Below, one piece after another: positions 55,855 through 64,000 of a stretch of 64,000 nucleotides of DNA. This stretch comes from an uncultured Anaerolineales bacterium (GTDB taxonomy: Bacteria > Chloroflexota > Anaerolineae > Anaerolineales > RBG-16-64-43): the NCBI GenBank assembly GCA_964353865.1, contig CAYGXJ010000118.1:2049-66048 (forward strand). The letters are read 5' to 3'. How positions within the stretch are numbered: position 1 is the first letter of the stretch; each line of letters begins with the position of its first letter. A model generated the notes under the pieces. That model saw only the letters and a program-made list of their open reading frames with translations. It made no database searches and was not told the DNA's origin. Made by a program: the position numbers and the translations under genes.

Positions 55855-56208
55855 TTAGAGCTTCTGGCCGCAAGCCGGGCATGCGACCCAGCCCGCCTGA
55901 ACCGGCCGACTGCACGCCGGGCAGCTGGCCATCGCCACCTTGGGGCGGGCCACCCCCCGGATGAGGGCGACCACGCCCACGACAACGAGCGCCAGGACGG
56001 TCAGCGGCACGAGCAGCCGCAGGATCATCCACGCCCCAGCCATCAGCGGGAAGGCTCCCATCATCCCCCAGCCGCCCATGTGCCCTGGCAGGAATCCCGC
56101 GCCGCGCATCATACCCGCCCCGCGGGCGAAGAACGGCAGAGCCACGGCAAAGGCCAAGACGAGCAGCACCAGGAAGACAATCAGCATCCACCACGGGAAC
56201 TTCTTCAT
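55855..56208 (-). CDS. Small membrane protein with Gly/Met-rich loop and C-terminal zinc ribbon
   Basis: Two transmembrane helices, GMMRG..GHMGGWGMMG, CPAC...CPAC. Confidence 0.75.
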   Translation of the reverse strand: MKKFPWWMLIVFLVLLVLAFAVALPFFARGAGMMRGAGFLPGHMGGWGMMGAFPLMAGAWMILRLLVPLTVLALVVVGVVALIRGVARPKVAMASCPACSRPVQAGWVACPACGQKL

Positions 56209-57083
56209 TGAGCGATCTCCTTCTCGGCGACGAACGCGCCGTGCCAGGTATGCGGCCACACCTGGCCGCTCAGTCCGTTCACGCTGAGCATACCCACCGG
56301 CTTTCCATCGACCTGGTAGTCAAACGTGTAGTAACCGTAGAAACTCACTCCACCCTCGGCCAAGACGGCACCTGGCTGCGTATCATCGAGGAATAGCTGC
56401 GCCTTCTCGCGCGCCGCATCGAGAGTGATCGAGTTGTCGACCGTCTCGGTGCGCGAGCTGCGCATGTGCCCGTACTTCGTGTTCCACATCATGTTCGGGC
56501 CCGGCTCCGGGTGAACGGCACCGGTTCGCGGGTCGATGAGTACTTCCAGTGCGCCGCGGCCGGTCTCCTTCTCAAGGATCAGCGCATAGAAGTTCGGGTC
56601 GAATTCCATCACTTCCGAAACGGTCAGCCCCGGGTCGATCGATTGCGCGTACGATCGTGCCTTCTCGACGGCCGAATCCAGTGTGATGCGTTCGCCCCGA
56701 GTTGTGGGTGGCACACCGCCCAAGCCCCACATCCCGCCGCGGGGCATCAGCCGGCTCTCGTTGCGCAGGCAGGCACCGTTCTGGTCACCGTAGTCACGCC
56801 ACGAGCCCATCATTCCGCCCGGCATACCGCCGAAGCCGTCGAAAGGGCACGTCTCCTGCCCGCCGCGCGGGGTGGTGCCGAAACCCGGCATCCTCCGCTG
56901 TCGGTCCGTCCAGCGGAATCCGAAGAACGGCAGCGTGTCGTCGGGTGTCCTGCCCGATTGCGGGGCGAGGGCCGCCGCCCTTTCTTGCGTGCGCACGATG
57001 AGCGCGCCGGCGCCGGCTGCTCCGCCCACGCCCAGCGCAAGGGCCAGCACGACCACCCCCGTCCAAAGCAATGCCTTTCGCAT
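56205..57083 (-). CDS. Exported Gly/Met-rich protein with PepSY-like repeats
   Basis: Signal anchor; GGMPGGMMG; EVMEF..NFY; PEPGPNMMWNTKYGHM; FYGYYT; MLSVNG..GQVW.HTWHG. Confidence 0.7.
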   Translation of the reverse strand: MRKALLWTGVVVLALALGVGGAAGAGALIVRTQERAAALAPQSGRTPDDTLPFFGFRWTDRQRRMPGFGTTPRGGQETCPFDGFGGMPGGMMGSWRDYGDQNGACLRNESRLMPRGGMWGLGGVPPTTRGERITLDSAVEKARSYAQSIDPGLTVSEVMEFDPNFYALILEKETGRGALEVLIDPRTGAVHPEPGPNMMWNTKYGHMRSSRTETVDNSITLDAAREKAQLFLDDTQPGAVLAEGGVSFYGYYTFDYQVDGKPVGMLSVNGLSGQVWPHTWHGAFVAEKEIAQ

Positions 57084-57160
57084 TCTTCACCTCATTTTGG
57101 ATGTGCCGGATCGCGGGCCGTTGGGCCCGCAAGGTTTCCCGGCCGGTTTCTATCTACCCG

Positions 57161-57215
57161 AAGATACCCTTCGCCTGTGAAGACGGTGTGAAGGCGGCCT
57201 GAAGGATGAGTGAAC
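57161..57215 (-). promoter_or_regulatory. Four OmpR/PhoB-type direct repeats plus -10
   Basis: Plus strand GTGAAG (57177), GTGAAG (57188), CTGAAG (57199), GTGAAC (57210), an exact 11-bp period; TATCTT lies 10 nt downstream on the minus strand. Confidence 0.7.
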
Positions 57216-57304
57216 GCCGCACTCCGCCGCGAGCGACACGGTGGATCCCTCCATTTGCCGTGCTATACTCCGTCGGCACTGTACCCCGCAGGAGGACTCC
57301 GCCC

Positions 57305-58270
57305 ATGCGCGCGCTGCTCATCGCCCACAACAGCTCGGTTGCCCGGAGCACCGACTTCGAGCATCTCGATCGCGACCTGGCCGCGCCGGGCAATCAGGTC
57401 TGGCTCGATATCGAGCGCCCGCAGGAGGACGACATTGCCCTGCTGCGCGAGAAATATCATTTCCACCCGCTGGCCATCGAAGACGCCACTCGCGCCTCTG
57501 AACGTCCGAAGGTTGACCTGTACAACGACTACTACTCGCTGGCGTTCTATGCCACGCGGCTGATTAGCGAGACGGGCGACCTCGACCTTCAACCCTTCCA
57601 TCTCTTCGTGGGGGCCAATTACCTGGTGTCGATCCACGAGCAGCCGCTGCCTGAGGTGGTGGGCAGCATGGCCCGCTGGGAACTCAAGAATGGCCCCCTG
57701 CAACCGAAGATCGGGGCGGCAGTGCACGCACTGCTGGATGCCGTGGTGGACGAGTATTTCCCACTGATGGACCAGATTGCCGACCGGGTGGACGAACTCG
57801 AGGACTCGCTCTTCACCGAGTACGACCCGAAGTCGCTGGAAACCATCTTCCGCCTCAAGAAGGGGCTGCTCAACATGCGGCGGGTGGTGGCACCCGAACG
57901 GGACGTGCTCAACCACCTGTTGCGGCGCGAGCTGCCCGTGTTCACCACCGAGGACGTGGCCTATCTGCAAGACGTCTACGACCACCTGGTGCGGGTCACC
58001 GACAGCGTCGATACCTACCGCGACCTGCTTTCGAACGCGCTCGACAGCTTCCTCTCGGTCCAATCGAATCGCCTCAACCAGGTGGTCAAAGTGCTGACCA
58101 TCGCCTCGATTCTGCTCATGTCGAGTTCGCTCATCGCGGGTATCTACGGAATGAATTTCGTCCATATGCCGGAGATACAGTGGCCCCTGGGCTATGCGTG
58201 GGCCCTCGGCCTCATGGCCACAGTCAGCACGTCGCTCATCCTCTTCTTCCGCTGGCGCAAGTGGCTATAA
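57305..58270 (+). CDS. corA: Magnesium/cobalt transporter CorA
   Basis: FHPLAIED, YLQDVYDHL, GIYGMNF..MPE; TGcTATACT promoter at 57261-57269. Confidence 0.95.
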   Translation: MRALLIAHNSSVARSTDFEHLDRDLAAPGNQVWLDIERPQEDDIALLREKYHFHPLAIEDATRASERPKVDLYNDYYSLAFYATRLISETGDLDLQPFHLFVGANYLVSIHEQPLPEVVGSMARWELKNGPLQPKIGAAVHALLDAVVDEYFPLMDQIADRVDELEDSLFTEYDPKSLETIFRLKKGLLNMRRVVAPERDVLNHLLRRELPVFTTEDVAYLQDVYDHLVRVTDSVDTYRDLLSNALDSFLSVQSNRLNQVVKVLTIASILLMSSSLIAGIYGMNFVHMPEIQWPLGYAWALGLMATVSTSLILFFRWRKWL

Positions 58271-58335
58271 ACGCCCCGGCGGCGCCCACCACGGCCATCG
58301 GAAACAAGAGGCTGCCTTCCCCAAGGCTGACGGCT

Positions 58336-58721
58336 ACCTTCTTGTCAGAGATCGTCGCCACCAAGCCTGAGGAGATCGCCGGAATACGGCTAGTGAAGAA
58401 CCTCGTCGGTCAGGGTGGCATGGTGAGATCCCCGGCCCATCTGACGTTTCGTCAGGATGGCACGTTCTCCTTCGATGAGATTGATGACCCGATGCACATC
58501 TTGGGTGGGCGCTCGGTTTCACCGACGGGCAGGTTACTCTCGACAGTCAGGAGTGCTACGGCGAAGCCAGGGCGCTCTTCTACCATTGCACGATGACCTT
58601 CACCATATTCTCGACCTTGCAGGCAGGCAAGCCGGTGCGGATCCGGCTTGTCTCGGGTCGCAATACTGGCGTATCCATTGTTAGCGTCAATGGCAAGGCC
58701 TTGATGCTGGACGAACCGTAG
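58336..58721 (+). pseudogene. 5'-truncated, frameshifted cassette ORF remnant
   Basis: One frame reads EIVATKPEEIAGI...LTFRQDGTFSFDE; after a shift near 58510 another reads LGFTDGQVTLDSQEC...NGKALMLDEP*, ending about 70 bp before attC1. Confidence 0.35.
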
Positions 58722-58792
58722 ACAACGCCAGGCCCCCTTTTGGGTGCAGCAGGTCAGCCTGCCTCGGCGGTCCACGAGCCGTTCAGGACGCT

Positions 58793-58946
58793 GCCCAACA
58801 ACGCGCTGCCTGCCCGGACCGCAGGCCAGGGAAGCTGACCCGGCGGGCGTCGCCTCGGTAGGAGCATGCGTGGCCTGCCGGCTTTCCGCATAGTCGCGCC
58901 AGGTCTGCCCGCTTCCGCCGGGCGGCCTAGCTCGAGGCCGTTGTGC
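58793..58946 (+). repeat. attC site 1, with a 23-bp insertion at 58809-58831
   Basis: R'' GCCCAAC ... AAGCTGACCCGGCGG / CCGCCGGGCGGCCTAGC ... R' GTTGTGC. Confidence 0.8.
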
Positions 58947-59076
58947 GGTGAAGTGGCCCGTGCCCCGAGAACCATTGGCTCGTGCCTCAGGCCCGCAGGA
59001 CGGGCCACCCTAAGGAGCGTGAGGTGGGTGTCCGCTCGGCCTGGGGCGGCAGAGGAGCTACGACGCGGAGCGACCC

Positions 59077-59295
59077 ATGCTCGATCGACCTTCTCGGATC
59101 GTCGCCGCTATTCTGGCGGGCCTCTGGATTGGTGGCGGACTCGCGACCACAGGGACCGCTCTGTGGCTCCGCCCAACCATGCTCCCGGTCCTGGTGGGAC
59201 TCTGCGCGACTGGCTACGGGACACTCTGGGCACGGGTAGCACTGACTGGGCGCCGCCTCACCTGGCGCTCACGGCGAACCAGGATTGAACGGTAA
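59077..59295 (+). CDS. Small two-transmembrane-helix cassette protein
   Basis: 72 aa, two hydrophobic stretches, GGAG ribosome-binding site, between attC1 and attC2. Confidence 0.55.
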   Translation: MLDRPSRIVAAILAGLWIGGGLATTGTALWLRPTMLPVLVGLCATGYGTLWARVALTGRRLTWRSRRTRIER

Positions 59296-59365
59296 CGTGA
59301 GTCGGCTTCAGGTCAGGGCCCTAGCCAACCACGCAGGTTGTCGCGCCGACATGGCTTCATTCGCC

Positions 59366-59543
59366 GCCCAACAATTCGCTTAAACCCCGGGCAGTCACCC
59401 GGGACGGGCTGACCCGGCGGGCTGGGTTTTCGGGGTGGCTTGTCTCGCCCGTCGGCCCGGCCTAGAGTCCTAGTGGCGTAGCCCGCTTCCGCCGGGCAGC
59501 TTGGCTCGCCTGCCCGGGCCGCAGGCCAGGGAGGCCGCTAGGC
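59366..59543 (+). repeat. attC site 2, with insertions at 59385-59408 and 59509-59531
   Basis: R'' GCCCAAC; arms shared with attC1 (CTGACCCGGCGGGC / GCCCGCTTCCGCCGGGCAGC); R' GCTAGGC. Confidence 0.8.
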
Positions 59544-59565
59544 GCCTTCGATGATCGGAGTCAAG

Positions 59566-60138
59566 ATGCTTCACTATCAAGGGGTACGTGACAATGAAAT
59601 CACGTTTAGCGACTTGATCGCCGGTCTAGAGCGCGACAACCTGCCTAGGCTGACCAATGAGATGATCGACACGATTCTGGGTCTGATTGCTGCGTGTGCA
59701 GACCCCGACGTGGTCTTTGAGCCACTTGATCCAGAAGCAGACGATCCGTTTGCAGCAACGCCCGAAGAGGTATGTCTGGCTTGGACTCTGGGCCACGTGA
59801 TTGTTCACATTACAGCGTCGGCTGAGGAATCGGCGTGGCTAGCATCTGAATTGGCGCGGGGGGTGGAACACCACGGTCGTTCAAGGTATGAAGTCCCCTG
59901 GAAAGAGATGAGAACGATAGAAGGGTGCAGGCTGCGCTTGCAGGAGAGTCGACGAATGAGATTGGCAAGCTTGGAAGTGTGGCCGGACGAGGCGCACTTG
60001 GATATTGAGTATCCGGCCTGGACGGATGGCCCCGTTGTGAATGCGATTGGTCGGTTTGTGCTAGGGTTGATGCACGATGACAGTCATCTCGGGCAGATAC
60101 AAGAGATTGTGCGTCAGGCCAAATTCGCGCGTCAGTAG
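59566..60138 (+). CDS. DinB family protein (cassette gene)
   Basis: WTLGHVIVH and HDDSHLGQI His motifs of the DinB/YfiT fold. Confidence 0.8.
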
Positions 60139-60151
60139 CTCGGACGGAGTT

Positions 60152-60339
60152 GCCCAACAACTCGCTTGTGCCGACGCGGCTTCCGCCGCAGGGGGACGCG
60201 CACTGCACTTGCCAGCCTTCTCAGAGGTCATCGAATAGAAGTCGTGCCCGTGACGCCGCGCGGCACCCTGGCCCCCGGCCTGACGGTCCAGCCTGCCCTG
60301 GGGCAGGTCCAGGGGGCAGGCAGTTCGAAGCCGTTAGGC
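60152..60339 (+). repeat. attC site 3, with a 55-bp insertion at 60266-60320
   Basis: R'' GCCCAAC, GTGCCGACGCGGC / GCCGCGCGGCAC arms, R' GTTAGGC. Confidence 0.82.
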
Positions 60340-60394
60340 AGCATCCCTGCCTTTCTGCATGCATGCGCATCGATAGAGAGGGGAGGCTCCAGCA

Positions 60395-61426
60395 ATGTCA
60401 ACGTCGAGTCTGAAAGGATACGCTGCGAAGGCAGTCGGACAACCGCTCGAGCTGTTCGAATATGAACCCCCCGAACTGGGCGAGCTTGACGTCCGCGTCT
60501 CCGTCACCCATTGCGGCCTCTGCCACACTGACATCCACGCGATCGACAATTACTACTCAATAACCAGTTATCCCTTCGTCCCGGGCCACGAGATTGTCGG
60601 TCACATTTCAGTCGTTGGGCGCGCGGTCACCGCGCTGAAGGAAGGTGACCGAGTGGGCATCGGCTGGCAAGGCCGGTCTTGCATGAAGTGCGAATGGTGT
60701 CTAAAGGGAGAAGAACAGCTCTGCATGGACATCGTCCCGTCGGGCACGTGGATCCCGTACGGGGGCTTCTCCTCTTCCGTTGTTGTGGATAGCCGATTTG
60801 CATACCCTCTGCCCACGGCCATGCCCTCCCCGGTGGCCGCTGTGCTCATGTGTGCCGGCGTCACTGTCTATTCCCCACTCCGAACGTACGCCGCCGACCA
60901 CACCAAGAAGGTTGCGGTTATCGGTCTGGGAGGGCTTGGCCATTTGGCAATCCAATTCGCTCATTCACTCGGCTGCGAGGTCACTGCACTTTCCTCCTCC
61001 CCAGCCAAGAGAGAGCAAGCGCTTGCCTTCGGGGCTAATCATTTTATCGACACCAGCGACCAGGCAAGCATGGGACAAGCCGACTATGCATTCGACATCC
61101 TCATGTGCGCGGCGAGCGGCGGGATGAACTGGGAAGCGCTTCTGATGACTTTGAAGAAGAAAGGTAGGCTGGTGTTGCTCGGCTTTCCAGATGTCGTACT
61201 CAACTCAACTGACCTTGTAGCCCACCAGATCTCGATCACAGGCTCCTTCCTCGGGACTCGAGCCACAATGAAGGAGATGCTATCATTTGCGCAGGACCAT
61301 GGCATTACTCCGGTGATTGAACTGATGCCCATGCCCCAAGTCAATGAGGCGATTCGCAAGGTGAAGGAGAACAAGGCCCGCTACCGAATCGTCCTGGCGA
61401 CTCCGACGACGGGAGTTGGCGACTAG
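60395..61426 (+). CDS. Zn-dependent NAD(P)H alcohol dehydrogenase/aldehyde reductase (Ahr/CAD-like, cassette gene)
   Basis: CGLCHTD, PGHEIVG, CxxCxxC..C structural Zn site, MCAGVTVYSPL, GLGGLGH, ARYRIVL. Confidence 0.93.
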   Translation: MSTSSLKGYAAKAVGQPLELFEYEPPELGELDVRVSVTHCGLCHTDIHAIDNYYSITSYPFVPGHEIVGHISVVGRAVTALKEGDRVGIGWQGRSCMKCEWCLKGEEQLCMDIVPSGTWIPYGGFSSSVVVDSRFAYPLPTAMPSPVAAVLMCAGVTVYSPLRTYAADHTKKVAVIGLGGLGHLAIQFAHSLGCEVTALSSSPAKREQALAFGANHFIDTSDQASMGQADYAFDILMCAASGGMNWEALLMTLKKKGRLVLLGFPDVVLNSTDLVAHQISITGSFLGTRATMKEMLSFAQDHGITPVIELMPMPQVNEAIRKVKENKARYRIVLATPTTGVGD

Positions 61427-61517
61427 GGAGATCCATCGAGGCGCGCCGGCACATGCCGTTGTCGACCCAATCGAGCTCGAACCCAATGGCCATGATGATC
61501 GCCTCGACCGAGCGGCG

Positions 61518-61677
61518 GCCTAACCATTCACCGGTGCCGCCGCGGCTTCCGCCGCGGGGGGGAACACGCACTTGCCGGCCGTCTCAGAGGTCATAGAATA
61601 GAACTCGTGCCCACCACGCCGCGCGGCACCCTGGCCTGGGGCAGGTCCAAGGGGCGGGCAGTTCGAGGCCATTGGGC
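61518..61677 (+). repeat. attC site 4 (close paralogue of attC3), with a 30-bp insertion at 61629-61658
   Basis: R'' GCCTAAC; shares CTCAGAGGTCAT.GAATAGAA and both arms with attC3; R' ATTGGGC. Confidence 0.8.
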
Positions 61678-61736
61678 TTCTCTATTGTGTCATTCATGAA
61701 ATCGATATGGAAGTGTAGTTGGGAAACGTGAGTATT

Positions 61737-62161
61737 ATGAAGAAGAACAAGATATCACAGAAGCTGATCGCTATTTGCGGAATGGACTGTCATCTCTGTA
61801 GTGCATATTAGAGAGAGAAGAATGGTTGTCTTGGATGTAGAGAGACGATTGGATTGAGATTAGCTTCCTGTAATTGATGCAAGATTAGGAATTGTGAACA
61901 GGCGGCAAATGGAAGATATCTGTTTTGTTTTAGTTGTGATTTTTGTCCATGTAAGAGTGTAAGAGGATAAAGCACTTAGATAGACGGCATAGGACTAGAT
62001 ACGGCACGAGCATGATTGAAAATCTTGAACTAATAGAGCGTTCTGGTATACGACAATTCCTAATAGATGAGGTAGAAAAGTTGGCTTGTCCCAGGTGCGG
62101 ACAAGTACTATGTGTTCATAAGCCGCATTGCCTATATTGCCAATATGCATGGCGCCAATAA
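61737..62161 (+). pseudogene. Cys-rich DUF3795-like protein, pseudogene, AT-rich cassette
   Basis: LIAICGMDCHLCSAY*REKNGCLGCR...CKIRNC...FCFSCD.CPC...SMIENLE...CPRCG..LCVH..HCLYC. TAG at 61809, TGA at 61875 and an 8-bp tandem duplication TGTAAGAG at 61950-61965. Confidence 0.8.
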
Positions 62162-62181
62162 CACTTGAAGAATAGAAAGAA

Positions 62182-62314
62182 GCCCAACAAGGCGCTGCAG
62201 TTGACCTGGCCCCCGGCCTGGAGTCTTCGTTGGTATGTACTTCGATGACGGGTTGAGTATGATGAACCTAGTCCGGCACAGCCGGCCAGGCAGCTGAGCG
62301 CCAGATCGCTAGGC
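62182..62314 (+). repeat. attC site 5
   Basis: R'' GCCCAAC; GCGCTGCAGTTGACCTGGCC / GGCCAGGCAGCTGAGCGC arms with the typical two unpaired bases; R' GCTAGGC. Confidence 0.85.
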
Positions 62315-62359
62315 GGAGCGCGCCTCCCGCGTCTCGCCTTTCGTCAAGGAGTGAGTGCC

Positions 62360-62755
62360 ATGTCCAACAGTCAGAAGCTCAATTGGCTCAAGCAGATCCT
62401 CGCCGTCAAAACCGCTTTCACCCTGCTCGCATGGGGGCTCCCCGCCCTCCTTGCTCCCCTGTCGCTCTTCCGCCTGCTCGGTGTGCCAACTCCCGACGAC
62501 CCCTTGTTCGTTAGGCTCTTTGGCGCAGTCGTCACGGCGGTTGGGCTGGCATATTGGTATGCCTATAGGGATCCCGTCCGCAATGTGTCAATAGTCAAGG
62601 TGGGAATCCTCGACAACGGGCTTGTCACCCTCGTGATTCTGGTGTTCACTACGTTCTACGGACTCAGGAGCGTCTTCATTTGGGCTTCTGGGTTGCTCAC
62701 ACTCGCATTCTTTGTTTCCTTCATCCTGCTGATGCCGAGACCAGAGGCCGCCTAG
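62360..62755 (+). CDS. Four-transmembrane-helix cassette protein
   Basis: AAGGAG ribosome-binding site; four hydrophobic segments; P..LFVRLFGA motif. Confidence 0.75.
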   Translation: MSNSQKLNWLKQILAVKTAFTLLAWGLPALLAPLSLFRLLGVPTPDDPLFVRLFGAVVTAVGLAYWYAYRDPVRNVSIVKVGILDNGLVTLVILVFTTFYGLRSVFIWASGLLTLAFFVSFILLMPRPEAA

Positions 62756-62796
62756 CCTCGCCACTTCGCTGCCGGGTCTTTTGCCACGCCTAGCCA

Positions 62797-63260
62797 CTTC
62801 CATGAGAAGGCCTTGCTTGTCAAGGGTCGACGTGGCGACCCTGTGGGACCCATCCTCCAAGCGTAGCCCTTTCGCCTCACTTCCATCCGCACTCTTGTGG
62901 GCCCAGGCTATGAGCCCGGTGCCTGTTGGAGTTCGCTCCTGGGGGGCGCTGCCATCCCCGGCCTGCGGCCTGGGCAGGCCCACTGTCGGTTTCCGGCTTT
63001 CGCCGGCCAAGTGGTTAGCCGCAGTCGCCTGAACGGGGCGTAGGCTGGGGATTCGGGTCGCACGGTCGCTTAGGTCTCTTCCTTGACGGTCTTGGTGGTG
63101 GACCTTCCTGCGCACTGCAGGTGCGATCAGATCACGCCGGCTGGGCTATCGGAACCTGGTTGCCAAGTGCCTGGGACGAATGCTCGGGGTTGTAGTCATC
63201 GCCAGTCTTCCAGAGCCGGTGAAGCACGATGGCAAGCTTGCGGGCAATAGCCACGACAGC
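62797..63260 (-). mobile_element. IS110 family (IS1111-type) remnant: transposase C-terminus plus right non-coding end
   Basis: AVVAIARKLAIVLHRLWKTGDDY at 63132-63260; about 330-bp 3' non-coding region ending CTTGACA..GGCCTTCTCATGGAAG. Confidence 0.8.
62860..63040 (-). ncRNA. Putative bridge/seek RNA in the IS non-coding end (boundaries approximate)
   Basis: Four short segments match the insertion flank, the attC L'' box and the IS terminus (see findings). Confidence 0.55.
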
Positions 63261-63465
63261 AGGAAGCCTCGTGCTCCTCAGGTGCGCGCAGGCGGACGGC
63301 CTGCCCTGCCCGTCCACACCGCGTCCGATGCGACACGACGCTCACTCCGCATATCATCCCCAAACGGACAGGATACAAGGGTTCTTCTCTCCCGAAGAGG
63401 AAGGTTTGCGGCAGTGCGATGTGGCGAAGGCAAGAACAAGCAGACGAAAAGAGGAGTCCATATAA
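63261..63465 (+). mobile_element. Possible second IS1111-type right end, without transposase
   Basis: Ends in GAGGAGTCCATATAA, which resembles IS1111 right termini; internal TATCATCC...GGATACAAG motif. Confidence 0.45.
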
Positions 63466-63538
63466 TCAGAGTGAGGCGGTAAGCCCTCGCCTTCCATCGC
63501 CGCAACGTCAGTCATTCTCTCTTGTTCAAGGGGGTGCT

Positions 63539-64000
63539 GTGGATATCGCGTCTCCTCTCCTTGCACCGGTCGTCGCTGCTCTTGTCGGCCTAGCTGTTTG
63601 GTTTGTCCAGTCCAGGGTCGACGCTGTCCGCCAGGCCGAGTCCCGACTTCGCGACGAACGCCGTAAGATCTACGCCGATCTCATCGGCCCATTCATCAAT
63701 GGGCTCTCCATTCCCGACGCACAACGCACACGCAAGCCATATGACCCCATAGCCCTGAAGAAGGCGGCCTTTGAGGTCAGCCTCGTCTCCATGATCGCAG
63801 CAGTTCTCGTCTTGGTCGGTGGGTGCAATCCGCTGCGCGGACCCGTTATCGATGAGAGAGATGATGGGGTCATCCGCGGGACCTTGTCGGTGAGTCGCGG
63901 CAAGTATCGCGAGGGAGAAACGGTCAAAGTCGTCTTCACGATCAAGAACGTCTCGGATCAGCGTGTGCTCCTCCGGCGAGAGGACGCGTTCGTTCAAGAC
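63539..64000 (+). CDS. Hypothetical membrane protein running off the window (absent from the ORF track)
   Basis: GTG after AAGGGGG; MDIASPLLAPVVAALVGLAVWFVQSR...LRDERRKIYADL...MIAAVLVLVGGCNP...KYREGETVKVVFTIKNVSD; no stop before 64000. Confidence 0.65.
   Translation, partial: MDIASPLLAPVVAALVGLAVWFVQSRVDAVRQAESRLRDERRKIYADLIGPFINGLSIPDAQRTRKPYDPIALKKAAFEVSLVSMIAAVLVLVGGCNPLRGPVIDERDDGVIRGTLSVSRGKYREGETVKVVFTIKNVSDQRVLLRREDAFVQD

Follow-up and report, generated by a model that had tools for sequence, protein, structure and literature searches.

Within a 64,000-nt stretch of DNA from an uncultured Anaerolineales bacterium (hereafter, the window), six short GC-rich blocks interrupt the attC recombination sites of an integron-type cassette array and the non-coding end of an insertion sequence (IS). 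We conclude with high confidence that these blocks belong to a real family of mobile micro-elements, some copies of which are nested, that occurs in certain lineages of Chloroflexota. The best explanation overall, to which we give slightly more credence than doubt, is that these micro-elements are moved as hairpins of single-stranded DNA (ssDNA) and spoil the attC sites that they enter. The window corresponds to C118:2049-66048, that is, to part of contig C118 of a 2.82-Mb draft genome (G000; 139 contigs, 65% GC, 98.6% complete by marker count); other genomes (G), contigs (C), loci (L) and public sequencing runs (X) are designated in the same manner.

The six blocks had been picked out in a first-pass annotation of the sequence, and all of their coordinates and sequences were recovered when the window was read directly (Table 1). 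The core 23-mer, CCTGCCCNGNCCGCAGGCCRGGG, consists of a leader and a hairpin, the stem of which occurs in a few compensatory variants. In degenerate form it is present three times in the window, compared with 0.01 expected (none of 100 shuffles reached three). The 24-mer of the attC2 left arm recurs in two more attC on C118. The 55-nt block of attC3 had been read as the attC4-type block with approximately 25 further bases; this reading holds, and close relatives, including nested blocks in distal attC, are found in the congener G005. In contigs of the public run X4, the loose ends at 61629 continue directly into AGTTCGAGGCC. All four attC examined in the window (attC1–attC4) contain insertions, and the block at 62956 lies on the same strand as the IS transposase.

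Table 1. Micro-elements, attC host sites and IS fragment in the window (positions are those of the window)
Feature	Position	Strand	Setting
A-type 23-nt micro-element	58809..58831	+	attC1 left arm, inserted at GCTG^AAGC
Related 24-nt micro-element (CCCGTCC...CCCGGGG)	59385..59408	-	attC2 left arm; on the + strand, between GCT(G/T)AA(G/A) and CTGACCC
A-type 23-nt micro-element	59509..59531	+	attC2 right arm at GCTCG^AGGCC, 5 nt 5' of the R' box
55-nt composite of nested micro-elements	60266..60320	-	attC3 right arm at GCGGCA^CAGTTCG
30-nt micro-element or composite	61629..61658	-	attC4 right arm, site as in attC3
A-type 23-nt micro-element	62956..62978	-	3' non-coding end of truncated IS110-family element, ~150 nt past the transposase stop
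attC1 (host site)	58793..58946	+	R'' GCCCAAC, R' GTTGTGC; family of the G005 131-nt canonical attC
attC2 (host site)	59366..59543	+	two micro-elements within
attC3 (host site)	60152..60339	+	family of the G005 129-nt canonical attC
attC4 (host site)	61518..61677	+	same family as attC3
IS110-family element fragment	62788..63260	-	final ~43 codons and ~320-nt 3' non-coding end; abuts an attC R''-like box

Filled and empty versions of these sites were collected, a check that the first-pass annotation had proposed. Every block proved to have an empty counterpart, whether in a paralogue, in an orthologue or at the population level. At the IS end, window 62788-63260 aligns with a paralogue at C80:22822-23271 (aligned segments 90% identical as mean column identity; 89% by BLAST), and the sole indel within the homologous stretch is exactly the 23-mer, the paralogue reading GTGAG^ATGGC and the window GTGGG[23]ATGGC. 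The C80 copy adjoins an intact open reading frame with DEDD_Tnp_IS110 and Transposase_20 domains. For the attC sites, the unbroken versions are provided by the canonical 129-nt and ~131-nt attC families of G005. The right-arm insertion of attC2 is absent from attC1 of the window, from one attC on C97 and from the canonical G005 family, all of which read GCTCG^AGGCC. At the left-arm site of attC1, eight of the 13 attC listed from the G005 family are empty (seven GCTG^AAGC, one GCTC^AAGC) and the other five carry the 23-mer. The sequence GCCTAACAACTCGCTGAAGCTGACCC is unbroken in seven of the 13 listed G005 sites, with the 23-mer standing there in attC1 of the window and the 24-mer three bases onward in attC2; the 59385 site itself (GCTGAAG^CTGACCC) is unbroken in the G005 canonical family. 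The site shared by attC3 and attC4, GCGGCA^CAGTTCG (...GCCGCGCGGCACAGTTCGAGGCCGTTAGGC), is unbroken in 31 of the 33 listed G005 attC whose match stopped there, and the remaining two have a different right arm at that site.

Filled and empty forms also occur within an environmental population and between species. In the public run X1, one contig (59424-60173, depth 6.8) is without exactly the 23 bases at 59509, and another (59382-59620) has them, with two differences and no gap. The public runs cover at most 31% of the stretch's sampled words, as contigs only, so that the uncovered parts are uninformative; within this partial cover, no empty form of the IS site at 62956 was present among the listed contigs. 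At an intergenic chromosomal position, C29:25370, G000 contains a unit that is absent from all four aligned congeners: G003, G002 and G005 read ..AG^AGA, and G004 likewise has no unit, with a larger unrelated insertion nearby. A group II intron offers two further cases, in that one of its loops measures 37 nt compared with 12 in the Rfam consensus, the surplus being a 25-nt unit, and a 23-nt unit of the intron copy on C25 is missing from the copy on C81, as parsed gapped BLAST alignments showed.

Because every block has an empty counterpart, the blocks are neither a constant part of attC nor products of slippage. The earlier proposal of an active insertion process is upheld by the filled and empty pairs together with the 44 classes of flanking sequence, described below, that the family occupies across genomes. 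The absence of a target-site duplication, likewise proposed earlier, was confirmed insofar as none was seen beyond one ambiguous G: the junction slides by one base because the unit ends in G and follows G.

The unit is non-coding, 23–30 nt long, and composed of a 4–5-nt leader, CCYR(C), followed by a GC-rich hairpin ending in GGCCRGGG. In its commonest form, C1C2T3G4C5-C6C7N8G9N10C11C12-G13C14A15G16G17-C18C19R20G21G22G23, positions 1–5 pair with positions 13–17, that is, leader with loop (CCTGC/GCAGG). Stem variants are TGC/GCA, TAC/GTA, CGC/GCG, TTC/GAA and CCC/GGG, and pairing is kept in natural variants such as CCTAC/GTAGG (C29), CCCGC/GCGGG (intron copies) and CCTTC/GAAGG (G376), in a sample that is biased, most loci having been retrieved by a pattern that includes the stem. 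A possible alternative helix, CCCNGG/CCNGGG, overlaps the first, with complementarity that is inconsistent by inspection. The relatives of 24–30 nt follow the same plan, with a short leader and a terminal CC(C)NGG...CCNGG(G) hairpin. A loose pattern has 36 matches in G000 and five in the reversed genome, and stem-bearing copies that follow a G number 16 in G000. To see whether copies outside known mobile DNA lie in genes, the longest open frames across six of these 16 copies (five of the longest and one short) were compared with Pfam; none of the six matched, which at 65% GC is a weak test.

Nesting is recurrent. Copies inserted in T-loops (see below) have two and three layers, and the nested surplus in distal G005 attC reaches ~120 bases. 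In an attC remnant on C77, the 23-mer is split by 23 other bases, and the same form is present in the runs X1 and X4. All that remains of this site (G000:C77:3200-3395) is an R'' box, an R' box and, between them, the 23-mer with its nested block of 23 nt; it looks as though a deletion running from a left-arm copy of the element to a right-arm copy had removed the centre.

To define the target, flanks were catalogued from G000, 41 relatives, selected titled Chloroflexota loci, the G005 array and two distant positives. The 87 copies fall into 44 flank classes, the largest of which (attC left arm) has 14 members; a few classes whose copies match the motif with two mismatches are probably due to chance. 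The earlier suggestion that each copy lies directly 3' of a G is borne out as a strong preference, position -1 being G in 36 of 44 classes when G makes up 33% of the genome (binomial p = 3e-11). Preferences extend to pyrimidines at positions -3 (38/44, p = 5e-7) and -4 (33/44, p = 6e-4), to A at +1 (23/44, p = 1e-7 for A, with G in a further 13) and to purines at +2 (39/44, p = 7e-8). The target rule is YYNG^RR, often TCG^A. By eye, the variable positions of the 23-mer (8, 10 and 20) showed no association with the bases of the target.

Insertions occur in both orientations and at many unrelated sites, the units persisting almost exclusively in dispensable or mobile DNA. Their hosts include the arms of attC from three families, at five different positions; the IS110-family element, in its 3' non-coding end at window 62956; and three kinds of gene recognised by conserved peptide motifs, namely an IS3-like transposase gene with two insertions, a further transposase-like gene in which removal of 23 bases restores the frame by codon reading, and an IS110-type transposase gene. 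Further hosts are the T-loop (GGTT^CGAGTCC) of multi-copy fragments interpreted as the 3' portion of an initiator-type tRNA, the apical loop of the group II intron, palindromes of the GTCATTCCG^AGCGAGGAATC type (REP-like, i.e. resembling repetitive extragenic palindromes), heptad repeats (CACCGCAG^AGAGCGCAGAGA), the apex of perfect palindromes (e.g. CGCAGGTTCG^GAACCTGCG) and other copies of the micro-element itself. Flanks complementary over at least 5 bp were found in six of 44 classes, compared with 1.2 expected from re-paired flanks, a value reached by one of 2000 shuffles. The first-pass annotation had held that all six sites are hairpin-forming DNA. A preference for such DNA is supported in part, by flank complementarity and by the T-loop, intron-loop and palindrome-apex sites, hairpin loops being favoured without being the sole targets.

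The tRNA-like fragments (L015-L018, L025, L027, L028, L039 and L040, from G002, G006, G009 and G012) are read as an initiator-type tRNA of which only the part from the anticodon loop onward is present, with a terminator-like hairpin on the 3' side and non-tRNA sequence on the 5' side. ARAGORN called no tRNA gene in the nine tRNA-like loci with T-loop insertions, and the fragments may be remnants of att sites or the end of an unrecognised element. The heptad-like repeats form intergenic runs (CACCRCAGAGAACRCAGAG...) at at least 13 loci, on contigs C13, C29, C40, C50, C81 and C127 of G000, and serve as landing sites of the micro-element. The group II intron (C81:68777-70200, L183; Rfam D1–D4 and domain V/VI models) has partial copies at C25:8966-9236 and C131:27324-27733. 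Its reverse-transcriptase match is split over two frames, and its copies differ by blocks of 23–26 nt, one of them of another design (CACCTGCACCCACCGCAGGTGCGGTG).

The motif, with up to two mismatches, is found in ten of 41 relatives (four of five congeners, all three members of a sister genus and few others); in the reversed control there are two single hits only. Two other families of the same order yielded no match in any of 33 genomes. In an even sample of the phylum, 46 of 401 genomes have a match, mostly a single one and near the level of the reversed control; this count includes one genome flagged as unpublished (G265), on which no conclusion depends. Multi-copy genomes are few and scattered (G051 with 19 copies, G376 with five), and copies per positive genome range from two to 19. 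In a wider contig scan, the titled multi-copy genomes among the matches listed are all Chloroflexota/Anaerolineae assemblies. Most single matches of that scan lie in unrelated GC-rich genomes and are probably chance, tens being expected by a rough estimate. The 23-mer is nearly identical across distant Chloroflexota families, which argues for either recognition by something conserved or horizontal spread.

The consequences for attC can be followed in G005, where a complete integron occupies G005:C5:140001-240000 (L215-L219), with IntI at C5:236767-237708 (493 bits) followed by at least 72 paired attC over ~90 kb. The attC nearest intI are a uniform 129–132 nt, and distal ones reach 250 nt by way of nested GC-rich blocks. 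Counting as decorated any attC with at least one extra block of at least 12 nt, one of 36 is decorated in the intI-proximal half compared with 22 of 36 in the distal half (Fisher p = 7e-8), the sole proximal case resembling a mis-paired start; inserted length increases with distance from intI (Spearman 0.71). Both orientations of the unit occur within single attC arrays. Since new cassettes enter an integron beside intI, the gradient is compatible both with slow accretion at older sites and with the retention of cassettes that have spoiled attC. Predicted minimum-energy DNA folds of canonical G005 attC have a 7-bp R''/R' closure on both strands; this closure is lost in the predicted folds of attC1, attC2 and attC4 of the window and kept, on the bottom strand, in attC3. 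Of the earlier suggestion that the inserts distort attC and could freeze cassettes in place, what stands is indirect: closure is missing from the predicted folds of three of the four window attC, and decorated sites lie far from intI in G005.

Under the explanation that we favour, a trans-acting strand-transfer enzyme would move the unit as a single-stranded hairpin, cutting after G at both element ends and joining the unit, by an HUH-like logic, into DNA that is transiently single-stranded or extruded as a hairpin. The insertion would spoil the attC fold, with the result that decorated cassettes would no longer be excised and would drift to the far end of the array. Transposition of ssDNA hairpins by a dedicated enzyme is, taken by itself, possible but somewhat doubtful.

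The first-pass annotation had named a RAYT (REP-associated tyrosine transposase) or an IS200-type Y1 gene as a possible mover, and here the result was negative: the sole Y1-like domain in G000 is without the second His of HUH and without the catalytic Tyr. It forms the C-terminal part of a 510-aa protein (G000:C108:10522-12054, equivalent to L001:1450-2982, minus strand), with DHCL for HUH and Phe for Tyr. The N-terminal part of this protein looks receiver-like by eye, Y1-like matches lie in open frames of ~510–630 aa across the order, and the protein is possibly, to judge from its sequence, a domesticated, inactive transposase domain used for DNA binding. All six genomes of the genus (g1, G000 included) contain only the degenerate 510–513-aa Y1-like protein, the residue loss having been checked in the G000 copy alone. 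We rejected RAYT/IS200 as the mover for this genus, the sole Y1-like protein being degenerate and present in element-free genomes. Bona fide Y1 genes exist in G006, G051 and G376, and ten Y1 loci inspected for adjacent copies of the element yielded nothing but chance CCNGG pairs, of which one falls within a gene for a membrane protein. The earlier suggestion of an IS excision scar found no support: no larger parent element or IS with these ends turned up in passing, no systematic search for one having been made.

Several observations weigh against enzymatic transposition of ssDNA hairpins with attC as a casualty. There is no intact Y1 HUH gene in the nearly complete G000, and the 510-aa Y1-like protein is found order-wide, including in genomes that lack the micro-element. 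Y2_Tnp was not found in five element-bearing genomes, with a model that matched no control genome either, which makes this negative uninformative, and no TnpB was found in G000. In G051 and G376, both rich in the micro-element, no copy of it flanks a Y1 gene. The target rule consists of a G and a weak context only, unlike the 4–5-nt targets of IS200/IS605, and copy number is low, as the 16 stem-bearing copies of G000 illustrate. The copies may also represent fewer independent events than their number suggests, many having spread passively with host repeats. Some sites are outside hairpin loops: that in the IS is at the 3' foot of a predicted stem, and those in attC are within short stems or next to them. 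Finally, the attC folds are predictions, and the G005 gradient, which derives from one array in which neighbouring cassettes are non-independent, may reflect age alone.

The main rival, which we regard as unlikely, dispenses with an enzyme: fork or repair synthesis would stall at a hairpin, switch template to a similar GC-rich hairpin (CCTGCC, CCNGG), copy it and return, thereby nesting hairpins. Such copying would account for the absence of a transposase among the searches made, insertions do favour hairpin DNA, and targets and inserts share short words (CCAG^GGCAGG, CCGCAG^AG). However, the boundaries are constant at unrelated sites, running from CCYRCC... to ...CCRGGG after G, and the flanks of target and donor have no more than one base in common; that the 23-mer is nearly identical across distant Chloroflexota families is also better explained by recognition by a conserved factor than by error-prone copying.

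Less probable still is a classical REP/RAYT system with a RAYT gene that the draft lacks or that acted in an ancestral or donor genome. The size and shape of a GC-rich stem-loop fit, REPs being 21–65 bp in one account (PMC3184786), and the unpaired leader beside the hairpin resembles the tagged REPs described in another (PMC3733652); bona fide Y1 genes, moreover, occur in the three genomes named above. Against this stand the degenerate Y1-like protein as the only candidate in six of six genus-g1 genomes, the unflanked Y1 genes of G051 and G376, the lack of a GTAG/CGTC tag, and the numbers and locations of the copies, which are tens rather than hundreds and lie inside mobile DNA and genes rather than between genes.

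We consider it improbable that the unit spreads through RNA, as a small structured RNA inserted at the RNA or cDNA level (e.g. by the reverse transcriptase of a group II intron) and fixed by recombination. An intron with a reverse transcriptase is present, and the unit is in sense orientation in seven of seven transcribed mobile-element targets (four transposase-gene sites, the IS non-coding end and two intron sites). In the tRNA-like T-loop sites, though, it is antisense, which reduces the count to seven of nine overall (p = 0.18); orientations are mixed within single attC arrays, and the reverse-transcriptase gene of G000 is, as noted, split over two frames.

Passive carriage, in which the blocks would not be independently mobile and a few ancient insertions would have been carried along by attC, IS, intron and REP hosts, is largely refuted. 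Many copies do share flanks, as the reduction from 87 copies to 44 classes attests, but 44 unrelated classes remain, the intergenic gain at C29:25370 is specific at the species level, and the site at 59509 is polymorphic within a population (X1), with different sites occupied within one attC family. The idea of a constant attC feature or of local slippage is refuted, since most members of the attC families have no 23-mer and the identical 23-mer type is also found in non-attC DNA, even if the left-arm 23-mer does sit at the same place in attC1, in the C97 attC and in five G005 attC.

Among known systems, the small dispersed repeat (SDR) elements of Nostocaceae and REP sequences are the closest. 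To our knowledge, the Nostoc SDRs described in 2008 are the only well-described bacterial parallel, and we know of no explanation for them. The SDR units in Elhai's account of that year are reportedly 21–27 nt long, nest inside other repeats and are proposed to be mobile. Like SDRs, the units described here are tiny (23–30 nt), dispersed and non-coding. According to PMC4390886, the precise insertion point of SDR5 in Nostocaceae lies after the third base of the palindrome GCGATCGC (GCG^ATCGC), i.e. at CG^A, and PMC5861425 states that, among the cyanobacteria examined that are rich in the HIP1 palindrome, SDRs are confined to Nostocaceae. The micro-elements resemble SDR5, as described there, in their precise insertion into a conserved sequence (YYNG^RR/TCG^A here, CG^A there) and in having palindrome-apex sites. 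They differ from SDRs in phylum, in being GC-rich and in their hosts (integron attC, IS, introns and tRNA-like fragments); the likeness is one of described size and insertion site. We can only tentatively entertain, as an unlikely but specific version of events, that a bare 23-nt hairpin is transposed after G into hairpin-forming DNA by a strand-transfer system sharing its logic, and perhaps its ancestry, with the mover of SDR5, and that, through its preference for folded single strands, it acts as a slow poison of attC, IS ends and introns. In that event, integron cassettes would be progressively frozen and other mobile elements disabled, the micro-element being a parasite of parasites or a brake tolerated by its host.

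REPs are thought to be non-autonomous mobile DNA (PMC3116915). The micro-elements share with REPs and REPINs a short imperfect palindrome (20–65 bp in those systems), in units of 23–25 nt whose CCTGC/GCAGG stem has compensatory variants. They depart from REPs, which are numerous and extragenic and often form inverted doublets, in their CCYR leader, in place of a conserved unpaired GTAG/CGTC tag (the one occurrence of GTAG is within a variant stem, in the C29 copy), and in being single units, inserted cleanly or nested at low copy number inside attC, IS genes and an intron; they depart from REP/RAYT systems, in which the repeats usually flank a cognate single-copy RAYT gene, in that G000 has no active Y1 HUH RAYT and the Y1 genes of G051 and G376 are unflanked.

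IS200/IS605 elements and palindrome-associated transposable elements (PATEs) leave no target duplication, have hairpin-bearing ends and insert 3' of a fixed target on ssDNA. These elements have two distinct ends, a 4–5-nt target and TnpA, whereas the micro-element is a single 23-nt hairpin that follows a G with pyrimidine-rich positions -3 and -4, in a genome with neither active TnpA nor TnpB. Miniature inverted-repeat transposable elements have terminal inverted repeats that match a full-length IS, and they differ in target duplication, of which the micro-element shows nothing beyond the ambiguous G. Folded attC DNA is targeted by IS1111-attC elements and group IIC-attC introns, but those invaders are of kilobase size and bring their own enzyme, whereas the micro-elements have no coding content and also occupy sites other than attC. 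The GC clusters and double-hairpin elements of fungal mitochondria are tiny GC-rich hairpin modules that insert into hairpin loops; their hosts and sequences are unrelated to those described here, and we know of no shared machinery.

The listings and abstracts searched contained no account of insertions of this kind, either in attC sites or in Chloroflexota. What is new here is the phylum and the hosts, the kind (an SDR-like micro-element) being already known. At ~23 nt, this mobile DNA marks the lower end of the size range over which the term transposable element is used, and it is among the smallest seen in bacteria. A second family with clean filled and empty sites, a CG^A-type target, nesting and well-understood attC hosts makes the question of how such units move tractable. 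The G005 array suggests that attC decay by accretion of hairpins with distance from intI, which would be a concrete route to cassette fixation. For annotation, decorated sites are missed by attC and tRNA finders, as the nine T-loop-insertion loci passed over by ARAGORN exemplify.

The cassette array of the window begins at 58.3 kb, 3' of a CorA gene, and consists of small plus-strand genes (encoding a DinB-like protein and a zinc alcohol dehydrogenase) with attC sites between them. These host sites are recognisable as integron attC in that their R'' (RYYYAAC) and R' (GTTRRRY) boxes close an imperfect long hairpin in the canonical G005 relatives, whose array lies beside intI. The integron integrase of G000 is encoded on a different contig, C45 (407 bits against TIGR02249), and no integrase gene was seen among the upstream genes scanned beside the window array, which may be a cluster lacking its integrase.

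At window 62788-63260, the IS110-family end abuts an attC R''-like box (GCCTAGCC joined to ACTTCCATGAG), and a different attC (C118:66373-66540) encloses a further fragment of the same end; the arrangement resembles that of an IS110/IS1111-type element that targets attC. An Rfam scan of window 56000-64000 (E<=1) gave no match, leaving a known RNA family at the IS end or in attC unsupported, and likewise the label of ncRNA that the first-pass annotation gave to the IS end. Between attC4 and the IS fragment, window 61700-62170 is a cassette with a GC content much below that of its surroundings. No open reading frame of at least 60 aa is listed for it, in-frame stops were noticed by eye in a Cys-rich reading, and it is possibly a decayed foreign cassette.

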